64,000 bases of DNA from Pseudomonadota bacterium (GTDB taxonomy: Bacteria; Pseudomonadota; Alphaproteobacteria; Rhodobacterales; Rhodobacteraceae). Location of the stretch: contig JBCBIS010000001.1 of the NCBI GenBank assembly GCA_038524325.1, positions 3,150-67,149 on the forward strand, written 5' to 3'. The first letter of the stretch is position 1, and every line of letters begins with the position of its first letter. Made by a program: the position numbers and the translations under genes. The notes beneath the pieces were generated by a model. The model made no database searches, had not been told where the DNA came from, and saw only the letters and a list, made by a program, of their open reading frames with translations. Of this stretch, positions 34,510 to 34,659 are shown in pieces.

Positions 34510-34570
34510 CCCAAATCACCTCCCTGGTGCCTTGGGGCGCAAGGGCGCGCCCCGCCGTAGATAGGGCACA

Positions 34571-34585
34571 GCAAGAGCTGTGCCA
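34571..34585 (-). promoter_or_regulatory. Sigma54 (-24/-12) promoter of the eCIS operon
   Basis: The minus strand reads C-TGGCAC-AGCTC-TTGC-T (34586 down to 34570). GG and GC have the canonical spacing. It lies 62 nt upstream of the sheath ATG (34509). Confidence 0.8.
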
Positions 34586-34659
34586 GACGCTCACAACCCG
34601 TCTAAGCCATTGATGATGTGTAATTTTCAGATTCTGCGCCTGACAGGCTGCCCGGGTTT

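Follow-up and report, generated by a model that had tools for sequence, protein, structure and literature searches.

Control by sigma-54 together with a cluster-encoded activator has been described for clusters of type VI secretion systems (T6SS), the activators being VasH in Vibrio cholerae and Sfa2/Sfa3 in Pseudomonas aeruginosa (PMC3162934, PMC3439928, PMC3804575, PMC13584744). For extracellular contractile injection systems (eCIS), the described regulators are GerE/LuxR-type proteins (25.8% of loci), BTAD and RfaH/AnfA1-type anti-terminators (PMC8213781); large eCIS surveys also name TetR regulators, and a review called the number of regulated eCIS clusters unclear (PMC10598620). Full-text searches found no literature linking eCIS to sigma-54, RpoN or enhancer-binding proteins. 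Here we describe a -24/-12 element at 34585-34570 upstream of the sheath gene of an eCIS operon, in a 64-kb stretch of DNA from a metagenome-assembled Pseudomonadota genome (the window, meaning the whole stretch analysed). The element is very probably a functional sigma-54 (RpoN) promoter driving the operon, and an activator gene at 8274-9326 probably encodes its cognate partner, a pairing in which we place slightly less confidence than in the promoter. The features concerned are, in window coordinates:

34570-34585, minus strand: predicted sigma-54 -24/-12 promoter element TGGCACAGCTCTTGCT, the sole exact match in the window and kept in orthologous loci
34510-34559, minus strand: predicted 5' leader of about 50 nucleotides (nt), its start placed by the -12 rule
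32623-34509, minus strand: sheath gene, 628 amino acids (aa), first of the operon, PF17482 at 1.8e-10
9309-34509, minus strand: eCIS operon of 18 tightly packed genes, 25 kb, delimited by Pfam matches and tiling of open reading frames (ORFs)
8274-9326, plus strand: bacterial enhancer-binding protein (the activator), 350 aa, PF00158 at 1.9e-58 and PF25601 at 4.9e-23

An earlier, sequence-only reading of the window had singled out this element and regarded sigma-54 control of eCIS as undescribed. For the searched literature this holds, but the activator domain already stands in a published eCIS table, and the T6SS precedent had been left out. A single row in a supplementary table of Geller et al. 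2021, not taken up in the text, is for pfam00158/Sigma54_activat and reads 1.59, 0.0407, 49, 'Other', 4, 'Shell', and the locus tables of the same study hold activator genes beside the eCIS loci of Pelobacter propionicus and Leptothrix cholodnii (PMC8213781). The association of activator and eCIS is present in published data and uninterpreted there.

From 34590 down to 34565, the minus strand reads GCGTC-TGGCAC-AGCTC-TTGC-TGTGCC, exactly as had been reported, and the consensus fit and the GG/GC spacing were likewise reproduced: TGGCACAGCTCTTGCT fits 10/10 specified positions of TGGCAC-N5-TTGCW, plus the final W, with the promoter doublets GG at 34584-34583 and GC at 34572-34571 separated by the canonical 10 nt. 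TGGCAC-N5-TTGC occurs exactly once on both strands of the window (128 kb), with an expectation of 0.07 (mean of dinucleotide-preserving shuffles) and at least one match in 7 of 100 shuffles. When one mismatch was allowed, two further matches appeared (20826 and 27426), and both were rejected as promoters, the former lying on the plus strand, antisense within the eCIS operon, and the latter being intragenic with its GG destroyed; the description of the element as the only match of consensus quality is borne out. It lies on the strand of the sheath gene, in the intergenic gap of 403 nt between that gene (32623-34509, minus strand) and the divergent gene 34912-38520, and 61 nt separate the -12 GC from the sheath ATG (34509); the sequence-only reading had put the distance at 62 nt. 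A simple scan of the intergenic region found no sigma-70-like promoter upstream of the sheath, and no further sigma-54 promoter of at least 9/10 in a sensible position was found within the operon or before the effector gene, the divergent G8/beta-helix gene or the activator gene.

For conservation, a comparison set of 10 loci was used, consisting of the window and nine fetched loci with sheath proteins 65-89% identical to that of the window. The close loci were found by exact-protein look-ups; a genome-contig scan returned distant relatives only, and a metagenome-contig scan with the sheath protein gave four fragments, none carrying upstream DNA. Among the 10 loci the intergenic sequence has almost wholly diverged, and the upstream neighbours differ (G8 protein, acyl-CoA dehydrogenase, GGDEF-EAL protein, HU, PIN/antitoxin pair, IS66 fragment, eCIS_core gene and others). 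Scoring of orthologous loci, which the sequence-only reading had proposed as a check, nonetheless placed the element at the operon start in 9 of the 10. In eight, TGGCAC-N5-TTGC is matched at 9/10 positions or better, both doublets intact, at -75 to -88 from the sheath ATG; in the ninth (L098), a 90-aa ORF is inserted in front of the sheath, and a perfect TGGCACGGCGATTGCT stands 48 nt before that ORF. Outside the operon-start positions, 471 kb of the same loci yield eight matches of at least 9/10, or about 1.7e-5 per position as background; the perfect matches in the orthologous-locus DNA, five in all, lie at operon starts. When the nine promoters are aligned without gaps over 76 columns, with the GG as anchor, the sole invariant or nearly invariant pattern is C-t-GGCA-N-g-N3-c-t-TGC, which by its sequence is the sigma-54 consensus; the extended form of that consensus is TGGCACG-N4-TTGC, to which the G after TGGCAC belongs. 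The closest cultured relative of the sheath (69% identity) is that of Rhodovulum euryhalinum (GCA_004342445.1; sheath locus on SLWW01000011.1), where the candidate promoter sequence is CTGGCACGCGGCTTGCT and a start is predicted some 12 nt beyond its GC, about 61 nt before the sheath ATG.

In L098, a degenerate -24/-12-like sequence, CGGCATGCCGGCTGCA (7/10), was also observed at 2920-2935, 81 nt before the sheath ATG. This is the promoter position of the other orthologues, and the perfect L098 promoter lies further upstream; the degenerate copy may be a relic or a secondary promoter.

With the C of the GC doublet taken as -12, the start falls at about 34559. The leader of about 50 nt and the ribosome-binding site of the sequence-only reading were both recovered, the latter as a strong GGGAGGTGA at 34524-34516, seven nt from the ATG. 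Near the 5' end of the leader, a GC-rich hairpin is predicted (GGGGCGC-N6-GCGCCCC, 34553-34547 pairing with 34540-34534). Leaders of 49-62 nt, each with a predicted GC-rich hairpin, are found in 8/8 comparable loci (window, L081, L082, L085, L086, L087, L095 and L097); position, extent and sequence of the hairpins vary by locus, and the leaders align poorly. No Rfam family gave a significant match in the leader or the intergenic region.

By its gene content, the operon behind the element is an extracellular contractile injection system of the Afp/PVC-like kind. Its products comprise the sheath, a gp19-type tube protein, a Pvc16_N cap, an AAA ATPase, a tube-like protein, a GPD hub, a spike with OB domain, a gp25-like protein, baseplate proteins, a DUF6519/beta-helix fibre-like protein and an eCIS_core (DUF4157) protein, and window proteins match PF17482, PF06841, PF05954, PF04717, PF14065 and PF00004. 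The sheath N-terminus MPQQLGAPGVYIEEIPSG agrees with the family consensus, the gp25-like gene (23480-23866) was assigned by synteny with the PF04965 gene of orthologous loci, and the last gene of the operon (9309-11240) encodes the eCIS_core (DUF4157) protein (PF13699 at 1.1e-31). Neighbouring genes are -13 to +18 nt apart, and the one wider gap, of 72 nt, precedes the last gene; within the operon, sites resembling sigma-70 promoters or terminators are about as frequent as chance predicts. The arrangement is most simply read as a single long transcription unit, with the sigma-54 element as the predicted main promoter of the 18-gene, 25-kb operon and probably the sole one.

Both the sheath ORF (32623-34509; PF17482) and the activator gene (8274-9326; PF00158 at 1.9e-58) are as the sequence-only reading had called them. 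Judged from its domains and motifs, the activator is a true enhancer-binding protein: Sigma54_activat (PF00158) spans residues 23-189, the PF25601 match represents the AAA lid, and the protein carries Walker A (GETGTGKE), Walker B (LFLDEID) and an intact GAFTGA loop (ELFGHEAGAFTGATS). Its C-terminus GGNVTAAAARAGKERRALGKLLKKHGL was assigned as a Fis-type helix-turn-helix (HTH) by alignment with the HTH_8 region of orthologues (P0134, PF02954 at 2.6e-7). As the AAA+ domain starts at residue 23, there is no N-terminal sensory domain, and a search upstream of the gene found no remnant of one. The majority of orthologues, 452-469 aa long, carry at the N-terminus an additional domain of about 130 aa that matches no Pfam family and is lacking in the window activator and its three closest relatives (349-360 aa). 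The missing sensory domain does not exclude the activator from the family and places it with the domain-less group of PspF and HrpR/S; control would most likely be exerted through the amount of activator, possibly from a sigma-70-like promoter of its own, or through a partner protein. On the window activator, no model of the curated NCBIfam activator families reaches its cut-off. In the long orthologues (P0127, P0134, P0136, P0138 and L098 928-2334), response-regulator-type NCBIfam models align only from about residue 85-95.

The activator gene is convergent with the last eCIS gene, with a tail-to-tail overlap of 18 nt (9309-9326). Upstream of it lies one weak candidate for a promoter:

8135-8163, plus strand: sigma-70-like promoter candidate TTGAAG-17-CATAAT, matching 9/12 positions, with 0.3 such sites expected by chance

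After the operon, the minus strand has its first terminator-like hairpin at 8067-8051, beyond both the activator gene and this candidate promoter. Read-through of the operon might run antisense to the activator gene and dampen the activator, a speculative and weak suggestion, as terminator-like sites occur there at chance frequency.

The rival explanation that survives best accepts the promoter and gives it a different partner: another enhancer-binding protein, encoded elsewhere, would activate the eCIS, and the local activator would serve another target. We consider this unlikely, although the activator gene is 25 kb from the promoter and convergently transcribed, and several such activators are usual in a proteobacterial genome. 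Exact-protein look-up located close homologues (59-75% identity) of the activator, and in five other loci with differing flanks (L088, L089, L090, L098 and L099) the orthologue is tied to the eCIS locus, in four of them (L088, L089, L090 and L099) at its distal end. P0136 (L088) shares its 4.99-Mb contig with the sheath locus L086, from which it is about 29 kb distant, and has eCIS_core genes and a DUF6519 gene on its flanks; P0134 (L090) is on the same 35-kb contig as the sheath locus L095, beside eCIS_core genes, an arrangement repeated on an independent contig; and P0122 is convergent with a CarboxypepD_reg/beta-helix gene resembling the fibre-like gene of the window. In L098, a 469-aa activator is encoded directly upstream of promoter and sheath, the gene having been relocated there. 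As the orthologues stay by eCIS genes while their position and neighbours change, the activator travels with the eCIS. Changes in the HTH and in the DNA upstream of the promoter, described next, also speak against an activator encoded elsewhere, as does the recurrence of activator and motif in distant eCIS loci.

Upstream of the -24/-12 element, the window holds further candidate sites, with positions relative to the predicted start:

34674-34689, minus strand: candidate upstream activator site (UAS1), perfect dyad GGGTCGTCCGCGACCC, centred at about -121.5, with a putative function
34649-34664, minus strand: candidate second activator site, weak in the window, with only the left half GGGTC intact
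34603-34630, minus strand: IHF-like element, consisting of the A/T tract GAAAATTA (34630-34623) followed by CATCAATGGCTTA (34615-34603), centred at about -49

Each of the eight loci that share the promoter position has a GGGTC-N6-GACCC dyad (0-2 mismatches), its centre at -114.5 to -121.5 from the predicted start, against a background of 0.17 sites per 150 nt, and in five of the eight orthologous loci a second dyad is found at -93.5 to -95.5, two helical turns from the first. The second site of the window sits in a direct repeat, GGGTGGGTC, with two copies 25 nt apart. CATCAATGGCTTA is one mismatch from the IHF consensus WATCAANNNNTTR, and its left half (A)ATCAA, after an A/T tract, recurs at about -46 to -51 in most orthologues, about 25 nt upstream of the -24 element. 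An order of UAS, bend site and -24/-12 element is the standard layout of activator-dependent sigma-54 promoters; the dyads would accordingly be bound by the activator and the 34603-34630 element by IHF. The HTH recognition helix KERRALGKLLKKHG is kept among the loci sharing the GGGTC dyad, whereas the helix of L098 is KDPRALRHLIRKHN and its upstream repeats differ as well (GGCGGACAA…TTGTCTGCC). HTH and upstream repeats thus change together in L098, a single contrast that points in the expected direction. Elsewhere in the window, a second exact copy of the dyad, GGGTCATGGGTGACCC, was observed at 32382-32397 within the tube gene, and dyad matches with at most one mismatch number 16, with 5.0 expected.

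The mechanism we propose for the locus would run as follows. Sigma-54 RNA polymerase would sit on the GG/GC doublets as a closed complex unable to open alone. An oligomer of the activator (8274-9326) would bind one GGGTC-N6-GACCC dyad or two, some 95-121 bp upstream of the start, and the DNA would loop, probably aided by the IHF-like bend near -49. The GAFTGA loop would then contact sigma-54, ATP hydrolysis would open the promoter, and a single 25-kb transcript would be made from about 34559, with its leader of about 50 nt and strong ribosome-binding site. We infer the start site, the binding, the looping and the dependence on sigma-54 from the DNA and protein sequences. A sigma-54 promoter is not known to show basal activity when its activator is missing; tight on/off control of the operon would follow from this general biochemistry.

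The pairing of promoter and activator was also looked for at greater distance. A scan of one genome per species yielded a diverse set of 80 eCIS loci (sheath identity in the best segment 35-59%), in six of which an activator gene lies at most 2 kb upstream of the sheath (tblastn E <= 1e-48). These six are from Gamma- and Betaproteobacteria, Chromatiales, Acidobacteriota (twice) and Verrucomicrobiota. Between activator and sheath, all six carry a sigma-54-like motif (at least 8/10, GG and GC intact), a motif carried by only 6 of the other 74, in which no activator was detected; that the twelve loci with a motif should by chance include every one of the six with an activator has a probability of about 3e-6 (hypergeometric). 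The actinobacterial and cyanobacterial loci among the 80 have neither activator nor motif. By this co-occurrence, predicted sigma-54 control is a recurrent, clade-restricted feature of eCIS beyond this window. The plasmid collection contains no close relative, and of four records taken from it only the Cupriavidus megaplasmid pMTS1 has an adjacent activator, in the same layout and with a weak motif. In L076 (Desulfocapsaceae), a perfect TGGCACTTAAATTGCA was observed at 9645-9660, 356 nt before the sheath, with no activator in the fetched 17 kb.

Where the activator gene is directly upstream of the sheath, the first ORF after the sigma-54-like motif encodes a member of a family of 90-117-aa proteins with the motif YL..HP.A.DT..GI..WW. 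The members are:

L098 2561-2833
L077 9650-9964
L021 9672-9971
L071 9677-9958
L011 9672-9977
L019 395-685 (short contig with motif and small ORF, no activator detected)
L065 5221-5568
L069 4233-4586

Pairwise blastp within the family gives E = 1e-5 to 1e-17, Pfam gives faint MarR/winged-helix hints only, and a search of the window found no copy. By analogy with PspA and PspF, the small protein could be a feedback partner of the activator. A wider reading joins these observations and is offered tentatively, as something that may well prove wrong: sigma-54 and a locus-encoded activator without sensory domain would form a recurrent master switch in a substantial subset of eCIS from several phyla, with Alpha-, Beta- and Gammaproteobacteria, Acidobacteriota and Verrucomicrobiota as candidates. 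The probable ancestral layout would then be activator gene, sigma-54 promoter and the 90-117-aa protein as first gene before the sheath, and the window would be derived, with the small gene lost, the activator moved to the far operon end, and antisense read-through of the 25-kb transcript over the activator gene providing feedback.

Several points weigh against a functional sigma-54 promoter with the local activator as its partner. L096 has no recognisable -24/-12 element, the sole exception among the 10 loci, and sigma-54 control is consequently not obligatory in this clade. The second dyad of the window is a half-site only, the right half of the IHF-like element is not conserved among the orthologues, and the activator by itself gives no Pfam HTH_8 match at E <= 0.001. 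No rpoN was found in the 64-kb window, and it is the intact activator from which the presence of rpoN in the host genome is deduced. Finally, in a genome-wide mapping study of E. coli, many sigma-54 binding sites are reported as unproductive (PMC4591121). With unproductive sites being common, a sequence alone never proves promoter activity.

By a second rival explanation, the element is a chance match or an unproductive sigma-54 site and the operon is read from an unrecognised sigma-70-type promoter in the AT-rich stretch at 34720-34900. The shuffled windows with an exact match and the case of L096 can be cited for it; the 403-nt intergenic region is indeed AT-rich upstream of 34720, and a simple sigma-70 scan may miss alphaproteobacterial promoters. 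We nevertheless rate it as very improbable, since the motif is kept in position and sequence in 9 of 10 loci at the low background given above, the AT-rich stretch is not common to the orthologues with other neighbours, no sigma-70-like site was found upstream of the sheath, and a dedicated activator is conserved in the locus.

The promoter overlaps one more feature, which the sequence-only reading had not noted:

34565-34584, no strand assigned: inverted repeat, perfect over 8 bp, GGCACAGC-tctt-GCTGTGCC, which shares positions -24 to about -6 with the promoter

That this palindrome, GGCACAGC-N4-GCTGTGCC, is the operator of a dimeric regulator or a DNA/RNA hairpin, with an incidental likeness to sigma-54 sites, is the least probable of the three rival explanations and hardly credible, for although the repeat is perfect over 8 bp and its DNA hairpin (-10.1 kcal/mol, z = -3.1) is equalled by 1 of 200 shuffles only, the right arm (GTGCC) is kept in 0/8 other aligned promoters while GGCA…TTGC is invariant or nearly so. 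An operator or hairpin was rejected as a conserved feature on the same ground: with its right arm unconserved, the palindrome is specific to the window and not part of the conserved mechanism, and it may add a local layer of control there.

Two neighbouring genes were noted besides. The divergent gene at 34912-38520 encodes a 1202-aa G8/CEMIP beta-helix protein that is found beside the eCIS only in the closest relative, L081, and does not appear to belong to the eCIS. At 45372-49961, a 1529-aa adhesin-like protein with repeated Big_9/cadherin-like domains is encoded, within which 46992-47231 and 47661-47900 give identical tblastn matches, which suggests an internal tandem duplication.

If the predicted sigma-54 promoter depends on its activator as proposed, this would explain silent eCIS loci. 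The finding turns the question of how eCIS are switched on into a simple experiment: expression of the short, probably constitutively active activator should switch on the 25-kb operon, either in the native host or in an rpoN+ host such as E. coli. Such a handle matters for the production of eCIS particles and for their engineering. Sigma-54 control, known from T6SS, would with this promoter reach the extracellular branch of contractile injection systems too, in keeping with a view of sigma-54 as governing the cell exterior (PMC3162934).

Among known systems, the described eCIS regulators are likewise encoded at the locus edge and have been proposed as master switches (PMC8213781). They work with sigma-70-type transcription, whereas here a different sigma factor would be used and ATP hydrolysis would be needed. 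PspF at the pspA promoter and HrpR/HrpS at the hrpL promoter have the same make-up of AAA+ domain and HTH as the window activator, with no receiver, GAF, PAS or V4R domain, and their promoters show the same order of UAS, IHF-like site and -24/-12 element as is inferred for the window. Activators of this type are controlled in trans or by abundance; within the window, no partner resembling PspA or HrpV was identified. The window activator is nonetheless distinct from PspF, scoring 224 bits against the PspF equivalog with a cut-off of 443.55, and its target would be the eCIS operon.

The closest comparison is that with T6SS, for the clusters of which sigma-54 control was reportedly treated by Bernard et al. 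2011, J Bacteriol 193:2158. Both are contractile, phage-tail-derived machines with structural genes behind a -24/-12 promoter and an AAA+ activator in the same cluster. The machine of the window differs in being an eCIS with Pvc16_N, an Afp15-like AAA ATPase and eCIS_core/DUF4157, and no T6SS-specific Pfam families (TssB/C, TssJLM, ClpV) were found among the scanned operon proteins. The window activator lacks the N-terminal regulatory domain found in VasH and Sfa2, a domain by which VasH senses Hcp (PMC13584744). What we describe is an ordinary sigma-54 promoter, as predicted, in an undescribed setting, and given the T6SS precedent it is unsurprising. By promoter and gene content, the locus appears to work like a sigma-54-controlled T6SS but is not a member of that family.

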